64,000 bases of DNA from Ostreococcus lucimarinus (GCA_000092065.1 CP000587.1), one strand, 5' to 3'; shown: positions 2,434 through 58,417, counted from the first letter of the stretch. A program made the numbers and translations. Notes: generated from the letters alone by a model not told the origin.

Positions 2434-4140
2434 ATGATGACGGCGCGAGGCGCTTCGACGCGCGCGAACGGCGCGCGAACGACGCGTGGGAACGCGGGAA
2501 GGCGCGCGAGGGCGGAGGGACGACGGGGGGGGACGCGAGCGCGGAGCGCGGGGGGGCGATTCGACGCGAAGAGCGCGAACGCGACGGATTCGGAGACGAC
2601 GACGACGGCGGCGACGCGAGAGACGGTCGCGGAGGACGGTGATGGGGCGAATGAGGCGGTGCGGAGAGTGGCGGAGGATCACGTGCGGGCGATGGAGGCG
2701 CTGAAAGATGGTGGGGTGGGCGGGCGCGGGACGAGGAAGTCGAGGGAGGCGGCGTCGACGAGACGGGATTTTCGAGCGCGGGACGCGAGGTGCGTCGTGC
2801 TCGCGGGGGGGGCGGACGAGACGAATCCGTTGACGCGTGGGCGCGCGCGAAGTGCGGTGCATCTGGGGGGGGCGTATCGAGTGATTGATTTTCCTTTGAC
2901 GAATTTAATCAACTCGGGCATGCGTCAGGTGTACGTGCTGACGCAATACAACAGTCACTCGCTGGTGACGCACGTCAACCGCGCGTTCCCGATGGAGATG
3001 TTTGGAAACAACAACGAAGGGTTCGTAGAGGTGTTGCCGACGTCGCAGACGCGCGAGCACGGGGAGACGTGGTCGATGGGGAGCGCGGATTGCGTCGCGA
3101 GGCACCTCACGCACGGTTCGCTCACCAAGCATAGTTTCGACATGCGCTTGGAGGACGAGTGTTTGCAAAGACACGGATCGCTCGAAGCGTGCGCGGCGAA
3201 CCAAACCGACGGGATCACCATCGTGTTGGCCGCCGAGCAGTTGTACACGATGGACTTCAACAAGCTCTTGGAGGCGCACTTGAAGTCGGAAGCAGACGTC
3301 ACCGTCGCGACGTGCGATCAAGTCACGGCGGAGAACGCATCGAGATTGGGCATCATGGACGTCGACGAGCACACGTCGAGCATTTTATCCTTCATCGAGA
3401 AGCCTTCGGCCGATCAGTTGCTCGAGTTTATGCAGTGCTCGACGGAGAATGAGCTTCTCGAGTGCAAGCTCAACGCCAACATGGGCGTGTACGTCTTCAA
3501 CAACTCAGCCCTGGAAGAGCTTTTGAGAGATTCAAAGAATCCGGCGGAAGAACGACACGAATTCGGCAGGGACATCATTCCGCACGCGGTGAACGCGGGC
3601 TACGACGTACGTTCGTACAAGCACTCTGGTTATTGGAAGCCGCTTCGAACGCTCGCCGACATTTATGAGGCGAACATCTCAGTCGCCACCGGCGGCGACG
3701 CCGCGTCACTGATCGACTTTGATCGATTAGTGTACACGAAACCCAACTTTTTGCCGCCTAACACATTTTACGGATCTTCGTTGACCGAGCGTTCAATCAT
3801 TTCGGACGGGTGCGTCATTCGCGACGGCGCCAAAATCATCAACTCCATCGTCGGTCCGTGCACTGTGATCGACAAAAACGTCGATTTGGAAGGAGTCGTC
3901 GTGGTCGGTCGCGACGAAATCCTGAAGCGGTCCGGAGGGGACAAAGTCGCCGATATCGGCGCGAATACCATCATTCGTAAGTGCATGGTTGATTCCGACG
4001 CCGTCATCGGAGCCAACGTTCGCATTCTCAACGAGGCAGGCATTCAAGAACTCGATCGCACCGAGGATGGATACATCATCAGTGAAGGCATCGTCACCAT
4101 CCTCGGAGGCGCCGTGATCCCCGATGGGTTCACAATCTAA
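2434..4140 (+). CDS. glucose-1-phosphate adenylyltransferase (ADP-glucose pyrophosphorylase), divergent, with a long Arg/Gly-rich N-terminal extension (possible transit peptide or over-extension)
   Basis: 568-aa ORF. VVLAGGADETNPLTRGRARSAVHLGGAYRVIDFPLTNLINSGMRQVYVLTQYNSHSLVTHVNRAFP matches the AGPase N-terminal nucleotide-binding region. Left-handed beta-helix C-terminus present (SIISDGCVIRDGAKIINSIVGPCTVIDKNVDLEGVVVVG...). Stop taa at 4138-4140. Confidence 0.8.
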   Translation: MMTARGASTRANGARTTRGNAGRRARAEGRRGGTRARSAGGRFDAKSANATDSETTTTAATRETVAEDGDGANEAVRRVAEDHVRAMEALKDGGVGGRGTRKSREAASTRRDFRARDARCVVLAGGADETNPLTRGRARSAVHLGGAYRVIDFPLTNLINSGMRQVYVLTQYNSHSLVTHVNRAFPMEMFGNNNEGFVEVLPTSQTREHGETWSMGSADCVARHLTHGSLTKHSFDMRLEDECLQRHGSLEACAANQTDGITIVLAAEQLYTMDFNKLLEAHLKSEADVTVATCDQVTAENASRLGIMDVDEHTSSILSFIEKPSADQLLEFMQCSTENELLECKLNANMGVYVFNNSALEELLRDSKNPAEERHEFGRDIIPHAVNAGYDVRSYKHSGYWKPLRTLADIYEANISVATGGDAASLIDFDRLVYTKPNFLPPNTFYGSSLTERSIISDGCVIRDGAKIINSIVGPCTVIDKNVDLEGVVVVGRDEILKRSGGDKVADIGANTIIRKCMVDSDAVIGANVRILNEAGIQELDRTEDGYIISEGIVTILGGAVIPDGFTI

Positions 4141-13241: not shown

Positions 13242-16200
13242 ATGGCGGTGGGAACGCGACGGGAGCGCGATGCGTCGCGAATGTCGCGCGCGCACGACGC
13301 GGATGACGCCGCGGACGCGCGACCGTGGCGATGGCGGCGATGCGGGACGTTTCACGCGTCCGAGGGAGGGATTTGGGGGACGAGCGGGACGACGACGGCG
13401 CGCGCGGCGACGCGATGGGAAAACGCGCCGCTGGAGGGGTTCGGTTTGCGCTTCGCGAGCGATGCGGAGGAGGAGACGACGACGCGCGCGCGAGCGTTGG
13501 AGGCGTGCGCGAGAGAAACGCTCGGAGAGGGCGGGTTGACGAATGAGATGTTGGAGGAGACGGCGCGCGCGACGACGACGCCGAGCGCGGCGAGCGACGA
13601 CGCGGCGACGATTTCGAACATCGAGACGCGGTTGGCGTCGACGCGCGCGATGTTGAGGGGATTGGGCGTCGATGAAGCGAAAACGAAAGCGGTGATGGCG
13701 CGGGCGATGGACGCGTGGGGAGGGGAGATTCGAGAACGCGAACGAATCGTCGACGCGCTGGAGACGCGCTTGCTCGAGGGAGACGAGGACGAGGAGGCGT
13801 TGAATTACATCTTGCGTCGTGCGGTGGCGCGGTTGAGGGTTTTGAAGACGAGTGGAGCTCGTTCGAGGGTCGGCTTGCGGGCGTGTGTGGCGAGCGCGAC
13901 GGCGTCCGTCGCCGCGGCGTCCACCACCGCGGCCGTCGCGGCAAAGTCTACGCCCATCGCGAAGAAAGGCCGCGGTGGAATGTTCTCTTGCTGCGGCGCA
14001 GATTCGACGGCGATCGATGACGACGCTCAAGAGCTCGCGTACGCGCCTTCGGAAAGTGCAGCCGTTGAATGCGAACCGCTTACTTGCGTCGTACGTCTTT
14101 CACGCGTTGGGGAAGAAACGGCGAGCGCATACTCGTCGACATCTCGCGCATACTCGTCGACATCTCGCGCATCTTCGCGAGAAGGAGGCGTTTTGTTCAA
14201 CGCCACGACTCCGTTATTGACCGTTTCCGAAGATGACACGATTGAGTTCAACTTTTACGCGGGCGACGCGCACGAATCCGTCGACGAGAGTGCAGTCGAT
14301 GCGAATGATAGGATGCGCGCCAACGCCGTCATGTCGCCGCACGTCGGGGAAACAAGTGGCAAGATTAGAGGAAGCGCCACCATTTGTGTCGCAGATTTAG
14401 CAGAGACGACGAGAAAAGACGAACCGCACGTGCTCACGATTTTCATCGAGCGGCCGAAGAGTGGAGGGTCACCGGGTCAGGTCTACGGTAAAGCAATCGT
14501 ACGCATTGACAAGTTCGTCGAATCGTTTGACGACGGAACGACGCAGATCGCGACGGCGAAGGGCGACGTTCTGAAAGATGCCGCCGTGCTTTTCGCGGCG
14601 CTCGACAAGTCGAGTGTGCCAAATGTAAAACAGCTTGTGCGCAGCTTCGTGGATCAGCGCGGCGCATGCCCGTCCATTGCTGCACTGGCCGAAATGATTA
14701 CGCTTTGCATTGATTGGCGACTCGAACGCCCGCAACTTGATAGATTACGCCACTGCACAATGGAAGTGTTCGCGGCAATTGCGGTGAATCGAATTACGGC
14801 GAGTGAGAAGCAGCGGTTTGACGAACTTTCCGCGCTCATGTCGAAACAACTAGAAACAGAGCTGTGCAATATTTTGCCGACGGCAAAAGTCGCCGAGCAA
14901 GAACTCGTCGATGTGCTTGACATGGAGTATTCTGCCAGTATCGCCCGCGCGATCATTCCATTATTTGCTTTGACCCTTGGGAGCATTTCAGCCACTCGGC
15001 TCGTGTTGCGGTTGAAAAAGGTCGTTCGCGAGGCCATGCGTAAACGTTGTGTCGAGCACATGGTGAGGGAAAATCCGACAAAGGGCCCTCCCACGGTTGC
15101 GTGCGTGACGTCTATGATATGCAAACTCACCAAACGTTTGCCGCTCGACGCTGCGATTTTATCGCAGTTTCCGTCCGAAGTAGAAGCTCTTTCGGAGGCT
15201 GCGTCGGCGTCGAGTGCTTTCATCGCAAACATTATTACTGAAGTATTTCAGGCGATCGCGAGCATGCGTAGCCCGCCTGATTACGACTCCGGGATGATGG
15301 CACTAGACGATGCGCTGTGCGCGCACAGGAGGGCATTAAAGCGATATGATTTGGTGCTTGCTATGCAGCCGATTTCGTCCCGGTTCATCGATCGGCTCCT
15401 TCAGCCGGCTTTGGATGAAACGCTAGGCACAGTACACCATGCGCTGGTTGCGTGGGTCAAGCAAGAAATTGATGGCGAAAGAACAAATTTAGAGCCCGTG
15501 GACGTCGAAAGAGGAGCGATGCACAGTATGTCGTGCGTCAATCTTTTTTGTGTACTCTACAACATCGATAGAGCAGCGCAAGATCACATTCTTCACGGCG
15601 AAAGAGCGGCGTTCAACGCTACATCGTTGAGTCAAATGTGCTATGAAGTGTTTAAGACGTACGTCAATATTTATGAAAGAGCGTGCTTGGAGGCGATCCA
15701 GAACGCGCGCTTGCATTTGATGCAAGACTCAAAGGGGCAGAATACGAAGACGGCGAATGTTTCGGACGTAAAGTCTCTGATGGTTGGTAACTTTTACACG
15801 CGTCTAAGTAATATTCATCAGTGCATCCTCGCGATCGAACCGTTCATGGAAGAGATGCCGTTACTGTGGTGTTCGTCAAAGTCGGAGTTCGACGAGACAC
15901 TCAAGCGTCAAGCGAGCTCGGAGTATGGTATCGATGACGATCAAGTGATATTGTTTGAGGACGATGAAGTCCATGTCTTCGACGAGAAAAGAATGCTGGA
16001 TACTGATTTCTTCGCGAACAGAATTGTACAGAAACTTCGCACCGTTCGCGCAAACGTCATTGCGTCATTAACGGAGTTGATCGAAGAACGGATTGCACCG
16101 TTTATTCGTGTCGCTATTCTTGACAAGGAAGAAAAGACACGTTCTGCGGCGGTACGCATAGTCTTCATGATGATTGACTCGGAGCTCAAGCTTATGAACG

Positions 16201-17498
16201 AGAGGCTTGCGCCAGGGGCGTTTCGACTGGCGTTGTCTTCGATGCACAAAGGGGTGTGTGATGCGATCGAACAACTCATCCTACACAGACCGATAGAGGA
16301 GGGAGCGCTAGAAGCCAGTGAGCGTTGGAGAGGATTACCAACGCTCACAGAAATGCAACATTCCTTAGTCGTCGAGCTCATGGCAGATGTCAGAGAATTC
16401 TTCCACTGCGACGGTGCCGGCGAGCCTGAGTCAATTCTCAAGGATGGCGAAGGCAGACTGCGCCGTTTGTTGAATTTATGGTTTACGCCCACGATCGAGA
16501 TTATGCGAGAATTCTGGCAGTTGAAAGAAGTATTGTCCCGATCGATCGTTTCGGCGCATGGCAAACAAATCCGACTGCGGTCGATCGGTGGAGTGGCCGT
16601 TCAAGACATCTTGCGCTTTTTGCGTCAGCGTTCAAACGACGCAACAGCAATGGATCTTTACAACGAACAGAGCATGCTGATTACGAAAATGAGTCTAAAA
16701 GCACTCTTTGGCGAACAGTTAATGAGTATCGACTCTTTACTCGGTGCCTGGGTTTGCCGCGATGGTTCTGGCTTAATAGGACGATTCTACATCACGGCTA
16801 CGCAATTGGCGTTTTCGACATCTGGAATGAGCATCGATCACCCGCACGACAGCCAGACAGCGGTCGTCCGAGAGATTCGCAGAATCGCGAACATCTCGCG
16901 TATCGATGCTGCTGATGGTACGCCTGGGCTTCGCATCACATTCGACGATCGTCGATCATTCACTTTCAGTGAATTCGGTGGAATGCACACCGAGTTAAAC
17001 ATTCAAGCTCGAGAGAGGGATTCGTGCGTCGCGGTGATTCGCACGAATCCTTGCTTCTTGCAGCGTCCGGTATTCATGCACGATATTCAAGTCGCACAAA
17101 TTTCAGATCATGCGTGCGAGACTTTAGATGAGGTTGTCAGCGTAGAAACGGCGCAGCGAATGGAGCCACCCACTCTGCCGGCGGATGAGGAAGTGATCGC
17201 CACGTGCGTCTGCGCGCGTGCGAACGGCTTAGCACGCGACTTGGGGAAGTTTACGGTGGCGAGCCAATCGTGCGTGTTTTTACCAGTCAACGGGTCAGGT
17301 CGTGGAGTGTTGTATAAGACTATGACGTCAACGAAGAGGATGCCACAGTTGCGGCCATTCGGTTGGAAGAATGCTGATATCATCATCCCGATACGACATT
17401 ACGAAGAACCCGTGTTGCGCTTGACGGGGATGACGCTCGTTGAAGCCCAGTCGGTTTTCGACGCACTGTCGAGCGCCATTACCGCTTACAAAAGTTAG
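13242..17498 (+). CDS. large uncharacterised protein (1418 aa); possible C2-like region, long helical middle, C-terminal PH/GRAM-like domain
   Basis: Uninterrupted 4.26-kb ORF with ordinary, lower-GC composition. C2-like stretch HVLTIFIERPKSGGSPGQVYGKAIVRIDKF. C-terminal LIGRFYITATQLAFSTSGMSI...GLRITFDDRRSFTFSEFG resembles PH/GRAM folds. The N-terminal 300 aa are low-complexity, so the true start may be downstream. Confidence 0.6.
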   Translation: MAVGTRRERDASRMSRAHDADDAADARPWRWRRCGTFHASEGGIWGTSGTTTARAATRWENAPLEGFGLRFASDAEEETTTRARALEACARETLGEGGLTNEMLEETARATTTPSAASDDAATISNIETRLASTRAMLRGLGVDEAKTKAVMARAMDAWGGEIRERERIVDALETRLLEGDEDEEALNYILRRAVARLRVLKTSGARSRVGLRACVASATASVAAASTTAAVAAKSTPIAKKGRGGMFSCCGADSTAIDDDAQELAYAPSESAAVECEPLTCVVRLSRVGEETASAYSSTSRAYSSTSRASSREGGVLFNATTPLLTVSEDDTIEFNFYAGDAHESVDESAVDANDRMRANAVMSPHVGETSGKIRGSATICVADLAETTRKDEPHVLTIFIERPKSGGSPGQVYGKAIVRIDKFVESFDDGTTQIATAKGDVLKDAAVLFAALDKSSVPNVKQLVRSFVDQRGACPSIAALAEMITLCIDWRLERPQLDRLRHCTMEVFAAIAVNRITASEKQRFDELSALMSKQLETELCNILPTAKVAEQELVDVLDMEYSASIARAIIPLFALTLGSISATRLVLRLKKVVREAMRKRCVEHMVRENPTKGPPTVACVTSMICKLTKRLPLDAAILSQFPSEVEALSEAASASSAFIANIITEVFQAIASMRSPPDYDSGMMALDDALCAHRRALKRYDLVLAMQPISSRFIDRLLQPALDETLGTVHHALVAWVKQEIDGERTNLEPVDVERGAMHSMSCVNLFCVLYNIDRAAQDHILHGERAAFNATSLSQMCYEVFKTYVNIYERACLEAIQNARLHLMQDSKGQNTKTANVSDVKSLMVGNFYTRLSNIHQCILAIEPFMEEMPLLWCSSKSEFDETLKRQASSEYGIDDDQVILFEDDEVHVFDEKRMLDTDFFANRIVQKLRTVRANVIASLTELIEERIAPFIRVAILDKEEKTRSAAVRIVFMMIDSELKLMNERLAPGAFRLALSSMHKGVCDAIEQLILHRPIEEGALEASERWRGLPTLTEMQHSLVVELMADVREFFHCDGAGEPESILKDGEGRLRRLLNLWFTPTIEIMREFWQLKEVLSRSIVSAHGKQIRLRSIGGVAVQDILRFLRQRSNDATAMDLYNEQSMLITKMSLKALFGEQLMSIDSLLGAWVCRDGSGLIGRFYITATQLAFSTSGMSIDHPHDSQTAVVREIRRIANISRIDAADGTPGLRITFDDRRSFTFSEFGGMHTELNIQARERDSCVAVIRTNPCFLQRPVFMHDIQVAQISDHACETLDEVVSVETAQRMEPPTLPADEEVIATCVCARANGLARDLGKFTVASQSCVFLPVNGSGRGVLYKTMTSTKRMPQLRPFGWKNADIIIPIRHYEEPVLRLTGMTLVEAQSVFDALSSAITAYKS

Positions 17499-17575
17499 AC
17501 GTCAAAAACGCGAAAGAACAGCAGAGTAGCGGTGTGATATATCATTATGTAGTCGTAGCAAATCGTGTTTCATAT

Positions 17576-20500
17576 CTACGCTGCGTCCAATTCAACAGTC
17601 AACACGGCGAGGTTGTCGTTTATGATGGATGAGTACGTTTCGACGGCATCTGGCAAAATCTCTTCGAGCGCTGAAATGAGCTTTTGCGTTTGTTTGAGCC
17701 AGTCGATTGCTTCCTTCGTTCGCATCGATCTCTCATGTCGAACGGCACGGTTGAAACAAGTTGAGAGCAACCACTGCGCTTCCACTGGGGGATATGAAGG
17801 ATGCAGTGCGAGGAACTCTTCGGCCGAGTCGTAAAGCGAGTGAATCACGTCGTCTTTGCTTTTGTACACTCGCGAAGCGAGTTGAATTTGTTTACGCATT
17901 AATCGCGCGATGAGAGCAACGTCTTGAATCAAATACTTCTTCATAGCTTTCCCAACCGCTTCATATGCTCTCGAAACGGTGACCAAATCAGACGTTCTCA
18001 TCGCCGCGCCGCGGTCGGCAATCATCAAGAGCGTGTTTATTGAAGCTTCGTCATCCAACGTCTTTGTCGATAATATTTCGATTATTTTGCCTTGCAACGC
18101 GACGTCACGCTGGGCGCAAGCGATTTCATATTCAAGGACACTCGCAACCTTTCGCAACTCTTCGTACCTTTCCTCTTCAGCGTTTTTCAACAAGCTGTGG
18201 AGATTGGCCATCGCACCCTTTGAGCGGGCGATATTCTTCGCTTCGCGTTCTTTCCGAGATTGTTCGTCTCCTACATCAGTAGCTGGGTTATAGCTGGTGA
18301 GCGATGCGATGGACAACAGAAGCGCGACTGCTTGTCGATAGCCATACTCTGCACGATCGTCTGCATCCAAACCTTCTGGAATCTTGTTTAATTTGGAAAT
18401 CACAAGCGCACATAAAAACATAAACTGATAGGCCGCTTCTGTTTCTGACGACTTTTCGTACGCGTCGAGGCCAGTATTCCACGAAAAGTCGGCGAGATAC
18501 CGTGCCTGTCGAACATCTGTGAGAAGATTCAAATTCGACGCTCGCTTCATGAACTCGCTGAACAACTCGGCTGATTCAGAAAACGTCTTCGAGTCAAAGT
18601 CACCCATTTTGGCCATTTTTACGTGTCGCAGATAACTGCAAAATATAAAAGTCTCTTGCTTCATCATATTATCGGTACCCATATTGTTCAAAATCATATC
18701 GTAAAGGCTACGAAAAGCGTCTGCGGCCGTGGCGTGGTGCTTTGAGCCATCGAGTTCTCCCGCAACGTATAACAACGCATCAGATTCACCTGCCTTTGCA
18801 AACGTTCGAATCGATTCTCCCAGGCCCGAGACGTCGTCAGAAATGAGCTGAAACTTTACGTTCAACAATGTTGTGGACACATCCGTCGCGGTCTTGTCCG
18901 CCAGCAAACTTCGCAGCGACTCCTTTGCTTGTTCGATATCGCCATTCTCGAGATCGCACATCACTTGCAGCCGGATAACCGGTACCGCTGCGTTGCTCAC
19001 GGTCTTCGACTTTCTTTGTGACGATAATGGGAGCGTCATACCAAACAGTTTTCGTGCCAGTGAGTACTTATTTTGCATGTACATGTCAGATGCAGCGTTC
19101 CAGATGATGGCGTATGCACGAGATTGCCCGTCGCGAGAAAAACCGATTTCCTTGAAACTATCGGTATCTGTAAGAAGTCGATCCATATAAGACAGAACAT
19201 CGTTTGCTACTTGTTCATCTACAGTGAGCGTCGTATCCAGTAGAGCTTCAAAGATATCAGTAATCATTTCTTGTCGTCTCGCCTTTGGACAGCCGCTCAG
19301 TCGTTTGGCGAGCGGAGCGATGCACGACGCAACGGCGCCAGCGCCGCATTCGCTCTTCGCCAGATTGACACAGCACGTATGGAGGACATTCACAACAGAG
19401 TTTTCATCGTTGAGTACATTTTCGAGTATGCTGCACGCTTTCGAAATCTCACCACTCCCTGAGAACGCTTCAATCAGCATGTTGTCCATGAGAAACGATT
19501 CGGTTAACGCCTGCAAATCGCGAGCCAAGACGTTATCACTATTTTCACACTTTTTCGCGTAAGACTTGATTATTTTCATTTTATCCAACACTTTAAGAGC
19601 CTCGTTGTACCTTCTTCCGTGAATGAATAGTCTGGCAAGGTTATGCAAGATGCGAATGTACAAACCATCGGCGCGAACCAGGCGGTGGTCCTCGCACACG
19701 AGTTTCTCATCTAAATCAAAGTGCGCCGCGTTATCTTGATGGGAAGACGTCGACCAAGAATTCGGAGTGATCGTGAACAAGTCGTAGTATGCTGCGATTA
19801 GCTCTTTGACGAGGAAACCAACTTTTCTGTCGAACACGGCTTCGTCATCTGCTGATTGAAGCTTTTCTGAAACCACGAAATTCTCAGCCAAGTTTATCTT
19901 CGCGCTGATCAATGTCGTTACGCACATAGTCTCATTTCCTTTATTCTTTTCGCTTTCAGAAAGCGATTTGGCGTCTTGAAAAAAGTCCCGAGCACCGGCG
20001 ACGTTGCCGAGATAAAAACAGTTCTTTGCGCGTGACGTGGCGGCTTCAATCGTCTGTAACATTGTCTCGGCGTCGAATTCGCCATTTCGGTTCAAGAACG
20101 AATTACCGTATGATTCACCGATCACGAACTGCTCTTCCGCCGCCTTGAACTCACCCGCATCGTGCAGCAACTTTGCGAGCGTCAAGTGATTTGAAATGCC
20201 GACAGCGAGACTCGAAATTTCAGGCGCCCCAGCGCTCACAGCGAAGCCATCCGCAAATCCCAACGCGGCGTCCAGCAACTCACACGCGAAGTACCTCAAA
20301 TCAAGCAACGGACCAATCATTTCCTTCTTCACAATCCCGCTTTCCGCCGTCGTCTCCAACGCCGTTTTCTCGATTGCGAAATTCCAGCATCGTTGCGACA
20401 TGTGCCTCGCTAAATCGCTCGCCTTCGTCGCATTCGTCGACCACAAATCTCGCAATCGCTCACTCACCCGCCGCACCTCACTCACCGTATTCGTCATCTC

Positions 20501-20938
20501 ATCCTCGCTCGATATTCTCTTCGCCAATTCCGCGCGCTTCAAAGAATCATGAAACGTCGTCCAGACATCATCCATCGCGTCGCGCTCCGGCGTCTCCGAT
20601 CTCGCCGCGCCGCGCGTCTTCGTTGTCTCCGAGACGCCACCATCCTCCGCACCCGCTCCGTCGCTCTCGCGCCGCTCCAGCCCCGCGCCTATAGAAACTT
20701 CGCTCAAAGAAATATCCATCAGCGCTTCCGCGCCTTTTCGAGCGCCCGTCGGCGTCGCATCGCGCGGTGCCGTCCTCGTTTCGTCGCGTTTGCGTTTCGG
20801 TCCGGAATCGCTCCCAGAGTGCGTGGTTTCGCTTTTCGACGCCGCGGGCGACGCGGTCGACGCGGGTGCGTCGTCAGCGCGAGGTGGATCCGATGTGTCG
20901 GTATCGGTTCGTTTGAACGGGCTCTGGAAACCCGGCAT
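17576..20938 (-). CDS. large helical/TPR-like repeat protein (1120 aa), uncharacterised
   Basis: Uninterrupted 3.36-kb ORF of normal, lower-GC composition, predicted all-alpha with repeated amphipathic helices. The N-terminal 120 aa are S/T/P/D-rich and disordered. No catalytic motifs. Confidence 0.55.
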   Translation of the reverse strand: MPGFQSPFKRTDTDTSDPPRADDAPASTASPAASKSETTHSGSDSGPKRKRDETRTAPRDATPTGARKGAEALMDISLSEVSIGAGLERRESDGAGAEDGGVSETTKTRGAARSETPERDAMDDVWTTFHDSLKRAELAKRISSEDEMTNTVSEVRRVSERLRDLWSTNATKASDLARHMSQRCWNFAIEKTALETTAESGIVKKEMIGPLLDLRYFACELLDAALGFADGFAVSAGAPEISSLAVGISNHLTLAKLLHDAGEFKAAEEQFVIGESYGNSFLNRNGEFDAETMLQTIEAATSRAKNCFYLGNVAGARDFFQDAKSLSESEKNKGNETMCVTTLISAKINLAENFVVSEKLQSADDEAVFDRKVGFLVKELIAAYYDLFTITPNSWSTSSHQDNAAHFDLDEKLVCEDHRLVRADGLYIRILHNLARLFIHGRRYNEALKVLDKMKIIKSYAKKCENSDNVLARDLQALTESFLMDNMLIEAFSGSGEISKACSILENVLNDENSVVNVLHTCCVNLAKSECGAGAVASCIAPLAKRLSGCPKARRQEMITDIFEALLDTTLTVDEQVANDVLSYMDRLLTDTDSFKEIGFSRDGQSRAYAIIWNAASDMYMQNKYSLARKLFGMTLPLSSQRKSKTVSNAAVPVIRLQVMCDLENGDIEQAKESLRSLLADKTATDVSTTLLNVKFQLISDDVSGLGESIRTFAKAGESDALLYVAGELDGSKHHATAADAFRSLYDMILNNMGTDNMMKQETFIFCSYLRHVKMAKMGDFDSKTFSESAELFSEFMKRASNLNLLTDVRQARYLADFSWNTGLDAYEKSSETEAAYQFMFLCALVISKLNKIPEGLDADDRAEYGYRQAVALLLSIASLTSYNPATDVGDEQSRKEREAKNIARSKGAMANLHSLLKNAEEERYEELRKVASVLEYEIACAQRDVALQGKIIEILSTKTLDDEASINTLLMIADRGAAMRTSDLVTVSRAYEAVGKAMKKYLIQDVALIARLMRKQIQLASRVYKSKDDVIHSLYDSAEEFLALHPSYPPVEAQWLLSTCFNRAVRHERSMRTKEAIDWLKQTQKLISALEEILPDAVETYSSIINDNLAVLTVELDAA

Positions 20939-30003: not shown

Positions 30004-30804
30004 CTATAATCTTGATCTAAGAGATGCGGTGTTCGCCGCGGCGTCGGCGACGTATCCCGCCTCGGCGTCGTCTAAATCCAAACCGTACTTGATCCTCGCG
30101 AGCGACGACAACTCTTCAGAGTCTAAAGTTCGCGACAACGCCTCGAACACGGTGAGTTCCTTGATTTCGTCGCCGCCATCTCGCACGCGTACCGCTTCCC
30201 CGCGCTCATTGATGCGAAAACCGACGTCTTCGGCGCGGTTCAACATCAAAGAAATCTCCCTTCGCGCCTCTGGAGGCGTCTCGGACCTCAGCACCACGCT
30301 CGGCAACCCATTCACGATCGCCTCTCTCAGCCCGGCGTCTCGCGTCAGCGCGTCGCCGTAACGAATTCTCCTCGATCGTTCCCATCGTCGCTCGAACACG
30401 CTCGGCACGTCGTACTCGATCAACTTGAGCGCCAAATTTAAGTGCGACGACCCGAGCGTGGCGTAAGCCCACCGCCGCGACGCCCACGTTCGCGCCGACA
30501 CCTCCGGGAGCACGCGCGCGTTCGCCCGCGAGAACGCCTCCCACCGTCGATACGCGTCTGATTTCAGCATATCTCGCGCCCGTTCGCGCACGACGACCGG
30601 AACGTCGTGGTTTTCGTTGAATCCATCCTCGCAAATCGACATCGCGATGCCGTGGGCGTGTTCAAGCGAGACGCCGCTGTTCGCCCTGTTCGTCGCGTCG
30701 GGGATGACGAGACGCGGCAAGACGCGCTGCATCTTCGGTTCTCGCCATTTAGAGAGCAGCGCGTTGAGGCGAACGACGTCGCCGTCATCGGCGTCGTGGG
30801 CCAT
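30004..30804 (-). CDS. hypothetical protein (266 aa)
   Basis: ORF of non-junk composition (..VLPRLVIPDATNRANSGVSLEHAHGIAMSICEDGFNENHDVPVVVRE..). No recognised motif. Confidence 0.4.
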   Translation of the reverse strand: MAHDADDGDVVRLNALLSKWREPKMQRVLPRLVIPDATNRANSGVSLEHAHGIAMSICEDGFNENHDVPVVVRERARDMLKSDAYRRWEAFSRANARVLPEVSARTWASRRWAYATLGSSHLNLALKLIEYDVPSVFERRWERSRRIRYGDALTRDAGLREAIVNGLPSVVLRSETPPEARREISLMLNRAEDVGFRINERGEAVRVRDGGDEIKELTVFEALSRTLDSEELSSLARIKYGLDLDDAEAGYVADAAANTASLRSRL

Positions 30805-30850
30805 GGAGTGCGGCGCTCGACGAATTCAATTCTGTTACAAACGCGCGGCG

Positions 30851-31723
30851 TCAGCCCCAAATTTTCTTGGTCATCTCGTCAGGCGTCGGCTCGCTCGGGT
30901 ACGTGCCCAGCAACACGTACTGTTCTAATTCACGAGCTCCCGTGCGCTTGTACAACTCCCACTCGTTTTCGTAGTACGCGAAGCGCAGGGCGCCGTAAAT
31001 TGGGAAAAAATACGGCTTGCGATACAACAGCCGAAAATGGTACACCTCCTTCCACGCCGCGACGGCGTCCATGCGCTCCTTCCTCCCTCGCACCGACATC
31101 ACGTTCCCCGCGGACTGCACGTCGTCCAACCTCGGATTAATCATGATCATCGGCTTATCGCCCACGACCGCCTCCATCTCCTCGATGTACGGCAGCACCG
31201 AGTACCCCACGATGTTTTGCGGCTGCACCAATATGAAACAATCCGCCCCCTCGCCGTCCGCCGCGCCGATCCCACCGCTCGGGTCGATCATTCCCTCCGT
31301 CCCCGGTTCCCAATCCATCATCCCGAGCAATTTCGACACCCCGCTCAGGCTCAGCGGCAGCGCTTGAAACACTCCCTGTCCCATGCTTCGCTGCACGCAA
31401 ATCTTCACTCGCAACCCGTCGCGCGCCAGCGCCGCCGCCGTCTCGCGCACGAGCTCCAGCGTCGTCCCGACGCGATACACGTCACCGTTTACGTTCAGCT
31501 CCGGGAACTCGCTCTTGATCTTGATGCGTCGCTCGCGCGCCGTCACCGCGGCGACGATCGACTTCGTCGCGTCCTCGTAAAACCATCGCCGCGTCGCGCG
31601 CGCGTGCGGCACGTTGTTCAGCAGCGTCGGGACGTCGACGCCGGCGTTCGCGCGCGACTTGGGCGACGCGCGTCGCGCGCGCGCCGGCCGCGCGAACGCC
31701 GGCGCGGTCGTCGACGCGCGCAT
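30851..31723 (-). CDS. DUF1995-like protein (plastid-type protein of unknown function), paralog 1, with N-terminal presequence
   Basis: The track ORF starts with GTG at 31738; the first ATG is at 31721-31723 (MRASTTAPAFARPARARR...). Conserved blocks ..CFILVQPQNIVGYSVLPYIEEMEAVVGDKPMIMINPRLDD.., ..YHFRLLYRKPYFFPIYGALRFAYYENEWELYKRT.. are shared with the second copy at 56316-57329. Confidence 0.6.
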   Translation of the reverse strand: MRASTTAPAFARPARARRASPKSRANAGVDVPTLLNNVPHARATRRWFYEDATKSIVAAVTARERRIKIKSEFPELNVNGDVYRVGTTLELVRETAAALARDGLRVKICVQRSMGQGVFQALPLSLSGVSKLLGMMDWEPGTEGMIDPSGGIGAADGEGADCFILVQPQNIVGYSVLPYIEEMEAVVGDKPMIMINPRLDDVQSAGNVMSVRGRKERMDAVAAWKEVYHFRLLYRKPYFFPIYGALRFAYYENEWELYKRTGARELEQYVLLGTYPSEPTPDEMTKKIWG

Positions 31724-31751
31724 GACTGTCGTCGTCACTCAGAGGCGCGCG

Positions 31752-31765
31752 ATGGGATCGACGCG

Positions 31766-31796
<31 letters not shown>

Positions 31797-32966
31797 GGAC
31801 GCGGCGAGGCGTCGGCGACGGCGACGCGCGACGCGATGGCGGCGCCGGAGGCGAGCGCGGCGACGGGCGCGGACGAGGACGCGTACGACGACGCGGTGGA
31901 GACGCGCGACGACGAGGCGGAGGTCGAGGCGGAGGTCGAGGAGGAGGTCGAGGAGATCGTCGTCGACGGCGCGGTCGGCGCGATGCAGCGCTCGGGTGAG
32001 CTGACGCGTGAACTTCGAGAGGAGGCGGAGGAGGAGGACGAGGCGTCGCTGGAGGAGGATATATCGCGAGAGGAGGCGCTGTCCACGGCGACGGAGATGA
32101 TAAAGTCCGTCGCGAACGGGGACGAAGCGCTGGACGCGGCGAGGTTAGGGAGCTTGTTGTGGGCGCTGAGTAACGCGCTATTGGAAGATTTGACGGATAG
32201 GGATGATTTGCGAGTGCCGGGAAATTCGCTCGAGACGTTTCCGGTGGAATTGGTGCGAGATATCATGGCAAACATCGAAACCTTGGTGATTGCGTTGACG
32301 TTTGAACCCGAAGACGCCGTGACGCAGCGAAGCGGACAAAAGATTCCGGCGATTGGGTCCCATCGCGTCGCGGCGGCGGAGATTTTGGCCGTGCTCTTGC
32401 AAATCGGATGTCAAGACATCGATGAGCGCATCGCAAAGCTCAAGCTTCCGAGCGACGGTCAGTTTGTCCTCGTGTCGCTCGTGCGCATGTTTTTCAAGTA
32501 CAATTGGAGTTCGGCTCTGCACGCGACGGTGATTCGTTTGATTCTCGCCGCGTTGGTGAGCCCACATGAACCGCTGTGGGCGCCGATGTTTGAAGGCGGT
32601 GAAGAGAGTCTTCAAGGCTCGCTCGCGAAATCCATCAAGGAAGCGTTGGCGACCAAGCCGATTTCAACGCGTCTGGGGAACGTGGGGAGTGTGATCATCT
32701 TGGCCAACGCGCTTTGTGAACTCGAAGCGTGCGACGACGTCGAGCGCGCGAGCGTTCGCACGACGCTGCAAGAGGATCCCGCGTGGCGCGCCACCGTGGA
32801 GGGCGAAAACAACAGTTTGGCGAAGCTAAACGAAGAGCAGGCGGGCGGTTTGTGCGGCCCAAAGCCGACAAAGTCGCCCGCGTTCATGGATTCGGGCATG
32901 GGCTCCAACGTCATCAGCAGCCAAGAGTTGCTGAGGATGTTGCAACACATCTCGCTCGGACAGTAA
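31752..32966 (+). CDS. SAPS-domain protein (PP6/SIT4 phosphatase regulatory subunit-like) with acidic N-terminal region
   Basis: The ORF runs from 31614, but the first ATG clear of the divergent gene is 31752 (MGSTRDDDDDDDDD...). ..ILAVLLQIGCQDIDERIAKL...VLVSLVRMFFKYNWSSALHATVIRLILAALVSPHEPLW.. resembles the SAPS family block FFKYPWNNFLH. Confidence 0.55.
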
Positions 32967-48538: not shown

Positions 48539-49015
48539 TCACGAGTGCACGCTGACGGCCTGCGTGCGATCGAGCAAGGGATGCACGATCGCGTACACCA
48601 AATCCACCGAACACGTGAACAGCACCAACGCCGCGTACAGCACGACGATCGACCTCGAATCGTCCACGCGCAAGTCGCCGTCGAAGTCGACGCGTCGGCA
48701 CGCGTCCACGCGCCTCCGGTGCAGCACCGCGAGCTCGATCGCGGCCAAGATGCAAGATCCGTAGATGATCGCCCCGAACGCGATCGGCACCTTGCCGCCG
48801 CGGCCGACGGCCGTTAATCCGACGCCCGTCAGCGTCATGACGCCGAGAAAGTTGAGCGAACTGTAAAACGTGCGCTCGAGCGCGAGCAGCGTCACGGCGT
48901 CGCAGCTCGCGCGGACGTCGCCGTCGTCGTCATCGCCGCGAATCGCGCGTTTCGCCTTGCCGAACGACCGAATCATCGCTCGTCGCGCGCGCGTCCGAGT
49001 GCGCGCGCGCGCCAA
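48539..49015 (-). CDS. DUF202 (YidH-like) small membrane protein
   Basis: 158 aa. LALERTFYSSLNFLGVMTLTGVGLTAVG matches the DUF202 N-E-R-T-F-L-A-W-x-R-T motif, followed by two further TM helices. Confidence 0.45.
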   Translation of the reverse strand: MARARTRTRARRAMIRSFGKAKRAIRGDDDDGDVRASCDAVTLLALERTFYSSLNFLGVMTLTGVGLTAVGRGGKVPIAFGAIIYGSCILAAIELAVLHRRRVDACRRVDFDGDLRVDDSRSIVVLYAALVLFTCSVDLVYAIVHPLLDRTQAVSVHS

Positions 49016-56315: not shown

Positions 56316-57329
56316 TTAGTTCGATAACGACTTCGCAAATCGCTGCATCTCACGCATCATCCCCAAAACCTTTTCAGCCGCAGTCTTTTCCGTCGCCTCG
56401 CCATCCTCGCCCACGGGTCGAAGCGCTGCGTCGACGATATCGTCAAGTTCCTCGCCCGCCGGTCGCTGCGCGTACTCATCAATGAGCTTGAACCGTCCCG
56501 GCTCCTCTGGGTCTTCCAAGAAAAGTTTCCACGCGCTCGGATACGACTTGTACAGACTCCCATTGCACCACGGCAGAGGTCTCAAAGAGTACGTGACCGT
56601 CATCTTTCCTAAAAAGTTGTCTCTCATGCGCCGAACGTTCAATCCAACCCCGGCGTCGCCGCTCGCCAATCTCGGATTCAACAGCACCACCGGATACCCC
56701 AACTCGTTCGCTCGACCCGTGGCCTTTTGTACCTTCTCTAAAGACATCGGATCCGGCGCCGCGAACACCAAAACGCCCTCGAAATCATCCGTCACCAAAT
56801 TCCTATCGTCCACGCTCGCCACCTCAAACGCGACGTCGTCTCCCCACCGCGCTCGCAACATCGCCGCCGCGCCCGCGTCCGGGAACACCGCCTTCACCCC
56901 AGTCGCACCACTCGCGCTCAATTTCGACAAAAACTCTCGAGAGATCTCCCACACTTTCAGTTGATCACCCGATTCGCTCATCACGTTTCCGCTCATCGGG
57001 TCCCAGAGCTCTGGGATGAGCAGCTCGACGATGCTTCCCGCGACCCCACGCTGCATGGCGTCTCGCGTCGCCTTCGCCGCTTGCCCGACGGCGTCGAAGA
57101 GGTTATCCGGCAGCACCTCGTCCTCACGCGGCGCCGGCGCCGCCGCGACCGGCGCGAGCGAGCGATCGTCGTCGTCCCCGCTCGATGTGGATAAACGCGC
57201 AAACTTTTGCGCCTTCGTTCGCGTCGTCGCCGCCGCGCCGCGTCGCGAGCGCGTCCCCGGCGTCGCGCGATGCGATGCCTTGGTCAGCGTCGCGCATCGC
57301 GTCGTCGTCGTCGTCGCGCTCGAAATCAT
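56316..57329 (-). CDS. DUF1995-like protein, paralog 2, with N-terminal presequence
   Basis: 337 aa, true ATG at 57327-57329. Blocks ..GVLVFAAPDPMSLEKVQKA...PVVLLNPRLASGDAGVGLNVRRMRDNFLGKMTVTYSLRPLPWCNGSLYKSYPSAWKLF.. align with 30851-31723 (NPRL, Y.FR.LY, G.L.R.Y...W.L). Confidence 0.6.
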   Translation of the reverse strand: MISSATTTTTRCATLTKASHRATPGTRSRRGAAATTRTKAQKFARLSTSSGDDDDRSLAPVAAAPAPREDEVLPDNLFDAVGQAAKATRDAMQRGVAGSIVELLIPELWDPMSGNVMSESGDQLKVWEISREFLSKLSASGATGVKAVFPDAGAAAMLRARWGDDVAFEVASVDDRNLVTDDFEGVLVFAAPDPMSLEKVQKATGRANELGYPVVLLNPRLASGDAGVGLNVRRMRDNFLGKMTVTYSLRPLPWCNGSLYKSYPSAWKLFLEDPEEPGRFKLIDEYAQRPAGEELDDIVDAALRPVGEDGEATEKTAAEKVLGMMREMQRFAKSLSN

Positions 57330-57361
57330 GTCGTCGTCGTCGCACTCCGAGGCGCGCTGTG

Positions 57362-58417
57362 ATGTCTGCGGTCGCGCGAAGCGCGCAGGGCACGCCGCTC
57401 GACGGCGCGCCGCTCGCGACGACGGCCGTCGTGATCGCGGTCGCGATATCTTTCGCGCTCGCGCTCGCCGCGAACGGCGATTTCGCGCGCGTGTGCGCGT
57501 CGCCGCGGTTGGCGTTTGAACATCCGCTGTCGAGCTATCATCGCGTCTGGACGTCGACGTTCTCGCACGGGAGCTTCCCGCACGCGCTGCTAAATTGTCT
57601 AGCGTTCGTTCCGATGGCGTCGGCGCTCGAGCGATCGATCGGGACGACGCACTTCGCGTGGTTATTCGCGACGTTCGCGCACGCGGCGTACGCGCTCTCG
57701 GCGAGCGCGGCGACGGCGCTTTGGATGGCGCTCGGATATCGCGCGTCGTACGAGAGCTGCGCCATAGGAATGTCTGGGGTGGTGTTCGCGCTGATCGTGT
57801 GCGAGACGAACGTGAACGACGTGGAGCGGCGAAGCGTGTTCGGGTTGTTCACAGTGTCGAGCGAGTATTACCCGATCGCTCTTCTGCTTTTCATTCAACT
57901 TTTGATGCCTGGCGTCTCTTTCATCGGTCACGCGGGTGGTATCGCGGCTGGATGGTTGTACGTTCGCGGATACTTGAACTTTTTGCTCCTGAAGGAGACG
58001 CACGTGGAGTATTTAGAGAAATTAGCGATTTGCGCGCCCGCGCGCGCCCTGGCGTCGTTCGTGCCGTCAAACGCCGATCGGGGCGCGCGGCCGAACGCGG
58101 AGGCGAGTTCGACCGCATTTCCCGCGTTTTCGACGGTTAGAGCGATCCCGACTCGTATGAGTGAGGTGACGCGCAACGCGTTCGCGGGTAATTTCCCGGG
58201 CCAAGGACGGAAACTTGGCGGCGACGGGTCCACGACGGGTGAGATGGCGAATCTCGTTCGGGTCGATCCTCGGGCGTTGGATACGTTAGTAGAGCTGGGA
58301 TTCGCAGAACACGCCGCGCGGCGAGCGTTGCAAGAATGTGACGGCGACTCGCAGCGTGCGATCGAGTTGTTGACGGAATCAGCGGCGCACGACGCGAATA
58401 GCGACGAAATAGTTTAG
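57362..58417 (+). CDS. rhomboid-family intramembrane serine protease with C-terminal UBA domain (RHBDD1/plant RBL-UBA type)
   Basis: Active-site GMSGVVFAL (GxSG) and a downstream His in FIGHAGGIAAGWL within about 6 TM helices. C-terminal UBA ..LDTLVELGFAEHAARRALQECDGDSQRAIELL... The ORF is open from 57185; ATG at 57362-57364. Confidence 0.8.
   Translation: MSAVARSAQGTPLDGAPLATTAVVIAVAISFALALAANGDFARVCASPRLAFEHPLSSYHRVWTSTFSHGSFPHALLNCLAFVPMASALERSIGTTHFAWLFATFAHAAYALSASAATALWMALGYRASYESCAIGMSGVVFALIVCETNVNDVERRSVFGLFTVSSEYYPIALLLFIQLLMPGVSFIGHAGGIAAGWLYVRGYLNFLLLKETHVEYLEKLAICAPARALASFVPSNADRGARPNAEASSTAFPAFSTVRAIPTRMSEVTRNAFAGNFPGQGRKLGGDGSTTGEMANLVRVDPRALDTLVELGFAEHAARRALQECDGDSQRAIELLTESAAHDANSDEIV

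Follow-up and report, generated by a model that had tools for sequence, protein, structure and literature searches.

The stretch of Ostreococcus lucimarinus DNA analysed here (GCA_000092065.1, CP000587.1; 64,000 nucleotides (nt), about 60% guanine plus cytosine (GC), hereafter the window) carries at positions 30851 to 32966 two genes arranged head to head, a DUF1995 gene on the minus strand and a gene with a SAPS-like C-terminal region on the plus strand, each of which has Pfam support and a matching NCBI protein. Between their start codons lies one of the two tightest divergent junctions in the window, and it is this junction, its origin and its likely mode of transcription that concern us here. 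The features at the locus are as follows, with protein lengths in amino acids (aa).

30851 to 31723, minus strand: coding sequence of DUF1995 paralogue 1, 290 aa, XP_001418989.1, exact NCBI match
31724 to 31751: non-coding spacer between the two ATGs, 28 base pairs (bp)
31728 to 31750, plus strand: element shared with a second junction, GTCGTCGTCACTCAGAGGCGCGC
31752 to 32966, plus strand: SAPS-like gene, longest version that fits a non-coding spacer, 404 aa, start MGSTRDDDDDDDDD
31766 to 31794, plus strand: (GAC)9 microsatellite (Tandem Repeats Finder), 7 to 9 copies among haplotypes
31836 to 32966, plus strand: SAPS-like gene in the reference annotation, 376 aa, XP_001418753.1, start MAAPEAS, found by exact-sequence look-up

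The minus-strand ATG occupies 31723-31721 and the plus-strand ATG begins at 31752, leaving exactly 28 bases (31724-31751) between them, while a CATG at 31721-31724 holds the DUF1995 start codon overlapped by a plus-strand ATG at 31722. An earlier note on this DNA had described these two ATGs, the CATG and the 28-bp gap, all of which are borne out in the bases; the junction recurs in eight metagenome contigs, and Pfam supports the names that the note had given the two genes. Pfam DUF1995 (PF09353) scores 126.9 bits in paralogue 1 against a cut-off of 26 (E=1.3e-36, model positions 2-196 of 197), and Pfam SAPS (PF04499, SIT4 phosphatase-associated protein) scores 41.3 bits against a cut-off of 25.6 (E=1.3e-10) in the plus-strand protein. 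The SAPS match covers only the C-terminal part of the model (324-440 of 451) in a protein of 376-404 aa, and a whole-domain match of the kind found in Sap155/185/190 or PP6R was not seen, so that "SAPS-like C-terminal region" is the safe label for this gene.

The two start codons differ in how well they are fixed. The DUF1995 protein opens with a short presequence rich in Ala, Arg, Ser and Thr, and its open reading frame (ORF) runs from 30851 to 31738; since an in-frame TGA at 31741-31739 closes the frame 15 nt upstream of the first ATG, and since the next methionine lies within the conserved domain, the start at 31723 is firm and leaves no room for a downstream start. On the plus strand, the ORF is open from 31614 and its earliest in-frame ATG is the one at 31722, within the CATG. 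The earlier note's description of 31723 and 31752 as the first in-frame ATGs is therefore right for the minus strand and wrong for the plus strand. Its further suggestion, that the 5' regions overlap or that one gene uses a downstream start, is alive in both its parts, except that DUF1995 has no possible downstream start. Because the reference protein XP_001418753.1 is 376 aa long, the annotated SAPS-like start is at 31836, which is 112 bp from the DUF1995 ATG and thus still short of the 150 bp that the earlier note had taken as the least separation for a conventional promoter. On many metagenome contigs the same ORF is called as 400-404 aa.

We compared nine haplotypes, the reference and eight independent metagenome contigs, all of which carry the junction. 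The spacer measures 28 bp in four of them, 29 bp in one and 30 bp in four, the differences being due to (CG)n slippage. Since indels of +1 and +2 occur in the spacer, whereas every indel in the ORF downstream of 31752 is a multiple of three, the spacer is non-coding and the ATG at 31722 is no conserved start. In CCE9901, the strain to which exact-sequence look-ups assign the window, this ATG shares the SAPS-like reading frame; in five of the nine haplotypes it is out of frame and would open an upstream ORF of 91-94 codons overlapping the SAPS-like start. Because a transcript reaching past it would include this out-of-frame ATG in most haplotypes, transcription of the SAPS-like gene probably begins downstream of 31722. 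That an artefact of assembly or annotation hides a normal intergenic region at this locus is scarcely credible: nothing was found in favour of it, one and the same junction occurs in eight independent metagenome assemblies from different samples, and the DUF1995 protein is listed in 810 blocks of the sequence collection.

To place the junction in its evolutionary setting, we examined orthologous loci from several other Ostreococcus lineages, including O. mediterraneus, which have 75-80% identity in DUF1995. The head-to-head SAPS-like/DUF1995 pair is kept in five other lineages and lost in one. In the five that keep it, the first ATGs of the two genes are 245, 253, 255, 378-390 and 406 bp apart, and these gaps consist of ordinary, more AT-rich intergenic sequence. 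Conserved protein anchors flanking the junction lie 340 bp apart in O. lucimarinus as against 768-800 bp in the relatives, from which it follows that ~430-460 bp were lost in the O. lucimarinus lineage; the lost DNA comprised the old intergenic region and parts of both variable N-termini. Since five relatives keep the pair with 245-406 bp, the collapse is specific to O. lucimarinus. As read from these loci, the comparison, one that the earlier note had itself proposed, shows a real collapse in which an ancestral gap of ~250-400 bp shrank to 28-30 non-coding bases in the O. lucimarinus lineage only, an event absent from all sampled relatives.

A second, comparably tight junction lies in the same window, and a near copy of part of its spacer is found upstream of another gene.

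56316 to 57329, minus strand: coding sequence of DUF1995 paralogue 2, 337 aa, XP_001418997.1
57330 to 57361: spacer of the second junction, 32 bp
57336 to 57357, plus strand: shared element, GTCGTCGCACTCCGAGGCGCGC
57362 to 58417, plus strand: rhomboid-UBA gene, 351 aa, XP_001418758.1
48987 to 49001, minus strand: third near copy of the motif, CACTCGGACGCGCGC, one mismatch, sense orientation

DUF1995 paralogue 2 scores 157 bits against Pfam DUF1995 and is conserved as far as land plants. The rhomboid-UBA start at 57362 is firm because the next methionine lies inside the membrane domain and because the residues APLAT just after the start are conserved in relatives, and both starts at the second junction are firm, for reasons like those given for 31723. 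A separation of ~30 bp between two firm starts therefore does occur in the O. lucimarinus genome. The second junction is also tight in relatives, with 61 bp and 101-116 bp between first ATGs (L023/L024 positions 2939-3001; L025/L026 positions 2884-3001). Two of these lineages share CTCTCGGG in this rhomboid/DUF1995 spacer, where O. lucimarinus has CTCCGAGG. The JGI/IMG name for the DUF1995 proteins is "adenylate kinase"; Pfam gives only DUF1995, and the name looks like a transferred annotation.

The earlier note had pointed to this second junction as a recurrence of the first, and the resemblance, with 32 bp between the ATGs, proves stronger than was claimed, for the two spacers share sequence. 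When every 32-nt segment of either strand was scored against the 28-bp spacer, the best non-self match turned out to be the second spacer with a score of 18, the next best reaching 14 over a background mean of 5.8 (standard deviation 1.5), and each spacer is the other's best match in the window. What they have in common is a 23-nt element, GTCGTCG..CACTCNGAGGCGCGC, that is GTCGTCG(TC)CACTC[A/C]GAGGCGCGC, and each spacer holds one copy of the 15-mer CACTCNGAGGCGCGC in the same orientation, the window having no third exact copy. At both junctions the element ends next to the plus-strand ATG, and at 31728-31750 its minus strand includes the TGA at 31741-31739, which bounds the DUF1995 ORF. Within it lies a CACTC (31736-31740) that stands 15 nt before the ATG at 31752 and fits the initiator pattern YANWY; CACTC is matched likewise at 57343-57347 and upstream of 48976, in each case as a pattern match only. 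The third near copy is 8 nt upstream of the annotated ATG at 48976 of the DUF202 gene XP_001418994.1, and at that locus a TTAAAT lies ~26 nt upstream of the A of CACTC, resembling a TATA-to-initiator spacing. We considered gene conversion between the two junctions and rejected it, the similarity being confined to the spacers without extending into their flanks. A metagenome-wide scan for CACTCNGAGGCGCGC returned at least 120 GC-rich contigs, none of which, among the matches listed, matched the window; it has no bearing on the frequency of the motif in Ostreococcus. We take the shared element to be a real but unexplained similarity, and it is this element, common to the two tightest junctions, that together with the lineage-specific collapse appears to be new.

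How unusual is such a junction in this genome? We made our own codon-usage-based gene calls for the window and checked ten starts by exact look-up, eight of which match NCBI proteins. The other eight divergent pairs in the window are 202-1189 bp apart and only the two junctions fall below 200 bp, so that the description of the locus in the earlier note as an extreme case holds within the window. At several places in the window, intergenic DNA is shorter than promoter plus untranslated regions (UTRs) would need: 28-30 bp head to head, 46 bp from stop to ATG and 71-82 bp between convergent genes. Intergenic regions below 200 bp have been reported for Ostreococcus (PMC2850359), and in Micromonas they average 167-211 nt, with a mean transcript that exceeds the mean coding length by ~145 nt (PMC4815162). 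The locus therefore stands at the extreme of a familiar kind of genome compaction and does not represent a new one. A list of 2288 bidirectional transcript pairs exists for Ostreococcus tauri (PMC4035068). A footprinting study, as it is cited in PMC2850359, found bidirectional regulatory elements to be less numerous in Ostreococcus than in yeast. A literature search for transcription start site (TSS), rapid amplification of cDNA ends (RACE) or bidirectional-promoter data from Ostreococcus found no TSS resource among the papers available to it.

Whether the gap is read as 28 or as 112 bp turns on the SAPS-like start. Starting at 31752 adds a predicted N-terminal segment, MGSTRDDDD...AGRGEASATATR, in which the (GAC)9 tract encodes poly-Asp; starting at 31836, the tract becomes 5'UTR or promoter DNA. 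It is a real possibility, though one to which we would give appreciably less than an even chance, that 31836 is the true start, and that the 112-bp gap including (GAC)9 houses a compact but conventional divergent promoter with separate start sites and no transcript overlap, the frame from 31752 being a by-product of GC-rich sequence. Both XP_001418753.1 and an ORF labelled "complete" derived from a transcript of the marine eukaryote transcriptome project (MMETSP) are 376 aa long. In addition, 28 stop-free codons are unremarkable at ~64% GC (~0.46 as estimated from base composition), and the segment 31752-31835 has no similarity to relatives beyond composition. Against this, the shared element adjoins the ATG at 31752, as it does the firm rhomboid start of the second junction; under ribosome scanning, 31836 would be used only if all start sites fall inside 31753-31835; and gene finders commonly avoid very short intergenic distances. 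The metagenome calls of 376 aa lend the annotated start no support, as described below.

Two further approaches to choosing between the starts were tried and set aside. N-terminal homology, assessed by Smith-Waterman comparison of the segment with shuffled sequences, gave p=0.25-0.69 in four lineages and 0.04-0.07 in O. mediterraneus. A start-codon context model built from 30 genes failed to discriminate, because the core G(-3) C(-2) G(-1) is common to all three candidate ATGs and what separated their scores came from sparse columns; the ATGs at 31752 and 31836 have the identical context GCG-ATG-G, so that 31836 is no worse placed in this respect. Across the window, G(-3) is found in 17 of 30 genes, C(-2) in 20 and G(-1) in 22, often preceded by a CG run, and this GCG-ATG context differs from the A/G-CC context familiar in animals and plants. 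A start at 31983 can be excluded, for conservation with relatives begins at YDDAVE, which lies downstream of both 31752 and 31836. Between these two, the sequence itself does not decide.

Whichever start holds, the database entries for the SAPS-like gene, with lengths of 327, 376, 400-404 and 413-414 aa, are a mixture of genuine variants and artefacts of truncation. The (GAC)n tract, which shows one GAC-to-GGC change among haplotypes, is a frequent breakpoint of metagenome assembly, and truncated 376-aa versions in public databases arise for this reason. We therefore rejected the 376-aa metagenome calls as support for 31836, since they are contig-end truncations within the repeat. Also rejected as evidence for a downstream start were contig L016, an Illumina-adapter chimera; L017, the only transcript-sized contig, which diverges from the genome upstream of (GAC)n; and the 327-aa calls, of which L147 reflects a scaffold gap of Ns and L148 a GAG-to-TAG change seen on a single contig. 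The L148 change, at the equivalent of 31953, falls in the acidic N-terminal region and, if real, would leave only a 327-aa protein from the methionine at 31983; it may be a sequencing error.

Two sequence relationships around the start codons were noted in passing. The spacer's GTCGTCGTC (31728-31736) and the (GAC)9 tract, 30 nt apart, are complementary to each other. Both start codons are enclosed by an imperfect inverted repeat of 24 nt, the arms of which (31697-31720 / 31762-31785) are 79% complementary. A transcript containing both arms of the repeat could fold around either AUG.

The reading that we favour, and to which we would give about an even chance, is that the collapsed divergent gap has become one ultra-compact promoter shared by both genes, with very short or overlapping 5' leaders and with core elements inside the partner's first codons. 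Under this shared-promoter reading, a single bidirectional promoter region would serve both genes, its core elements being distributed between the spacer and the opening codons of both genes. Transcription of the SAPS-like gene would begin within the spacer, the initiator-like CACTC (31736-31740) being the probable site. An mRNA starting in the spacer would have the ATG at 31752 as its first AUG, giving a protein of 404 aa, and a leader of less than 29 nt, or of ~15 nt should it begin at the A of CACTC. The DUF1995 mRNA would start at or beyond CACTC. Because a usable DUF1995 leader must begin at or beyond the SAPS-like start point, the two 5' ends would either meet or have an overlap ranging from a few nt to a few tens of nt, and the side-by-side placement of two initiation complexes that ordinary divergent promoters allow would be impossible. 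With 28-30 bp between the ATGs (112 bp as annotated), the predicted TSS-to-TSS distance must be small or negative.

Several observations weigh against this shared-promoter reading. All that is said here about transcript 5' ends is an inference from sequence, and both the reference annotation and the 376-aa ORF from the MMETSP transcript start at 31836. Of 36 ATGs, 6 have a CACTC in the 35 nt that precede them, where 1.07 would be expected (raw p 8.5e-4), an enrichment that is not significant after correction for 425 k-mer tests, and when conservation of CACTC was looked for at the orthologous promoters of relatives none was seen. The GTC repeats and the GCGCGC / GCG-ATG context within the shared element are generic for this genome, and haplotype variants change its GAGGCGCGC part.

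The same two start codons, 31723 and 31752, could also be served by a DUF1995 mRNA that begins tens to hundreds of nt inside the SAPS-like coding region, giving a long antisense 5' overlap and possibly mutual interference. We consider this unlikely. Scanning ribosomes read very short leaders inefficiently, which would favour a longer leader, and the 543 nt upstream of the DUF1995 ATG contain no ATG on the sense strand (191 nt at the second junction). ATG-free stretches of at least 540 nt, however, cover 4.6% of the window, so that the observation is only marginally unusual, and we dropped upstream-ATG depletion as evidence. A leader extending past 31766 would moreover carry (GUC)9, complementary to GACGACGAC just before the AUG. 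The mirror arrangement, with a long leader for the SAPS-like gene, is disfavoured by the out-of-frame upstream ATG.

The 23-nt element GTCGTCG..CACTCNGAGGCGCGC might by itself constitute a self-contained minimal bidirectional core promoter, from which two RNA polymerase II genes of a free-living eukaryote fire within less than 35 bp. The leaders would then be ~15 nt long or the mRNAs would overlap at their 5' ends, and the element's origin or recruitment would date from the collapse of the pair's ancestral 250-400 bp promoter in O. lucimarinus. This we regard as distinctly improbable.

The shared-promoter reading can be set beside several known systems. As in the bidirectional pairs of plants and O. 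tauri, the two genes occupy opposite strands and face each other 5' end to 5' end across a gap far below 1 kb, and the pair is kept across Ostreococcus species. Ordinary divergent promoters, in contrast, have a nucleosome-free region of ~100-200 bp between two initiation sites, for which a gap of 28-30 bp (112 bp at most) leaves no room. There is also a likeness to the compacted genomes of microsporidia and nucleomorphs (PMC10815200, and Williams et al. 2005 as cited in it), where intergenic DNA is likewise too short for separate promoters and UTRs, a short signal lies by the start codon, and promoter signals are expected within neighbouring genes; in microsporidia, 5'UTRs are reduced or absent and transcription signals adjoin the start codon (PMC10815200). 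O. lucimarinus differs in being a free-living phototroph, neither a parasite nor an endosymbiont remnant; the candidate signal, CACTCNGAG, is also unrelated to the CCC/GGG-like signals of microsporidia. With the RNA polymerase II initiator (Inr, YYANWYY), the locus shares a CACTC that fits YANWY 15-24 nt upstream of three ATGs, one of them preceded by TTAAAT at near TATA-to-Inr spacing; it differs in that CACTC is a pattern match whose corrected enrichment and conservation fall short, as set out above.

Compaction extends to the other end of DUF1995 paralogue 1.

30004 to 30804, minus strand: gene downstream of DUF1995 paralogue 1, 266 aa, XP_001418988.1, no Pfam domain

From the DUF1995 stop to the ATG of this gene there are 46 bp (30805-30850), compared with 110-148 bp in relatives, and either the downstream promoter lies inside DUF1995 or both genes are co-transcribed. 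The same-strand spacing of the tandem DUF1995 / 266-aa ORF is typical of green-algal polycistronic pairs (PMC7896298); the likeness concerns the tandem neighbour, however, and not the head-to-head pair, and short gaps are the rule in this genome. Elsewhere in the window, GC falls to 0.475-0.525 at 14001-20000 as against ~0.6 in the remainder, a stretch that covers two long genes (13242-17498, plus strand; 17576-20938, minus strand) with lower codon-bias scores.

If the SAPS-like gene starts at 31836, what the locus holds would be a conventional divergent promoter, among the shortest of a genome that is compact in any case. Should the 28-bp reading be true, this locus and its twin at 57330-57361 would be natural tests of the minimum of DNA that a eukaryotic divergent promoter requires, and of whether core promoter elements can reside in coding sequence, with comparators built in: sister lineages that have a 245-406 bp gap, and natural haplotypes with 28, 29 and 30 bp. 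In practical terms, such junctions may be of value for compact expression cassettes in transformable Ostreococcus.

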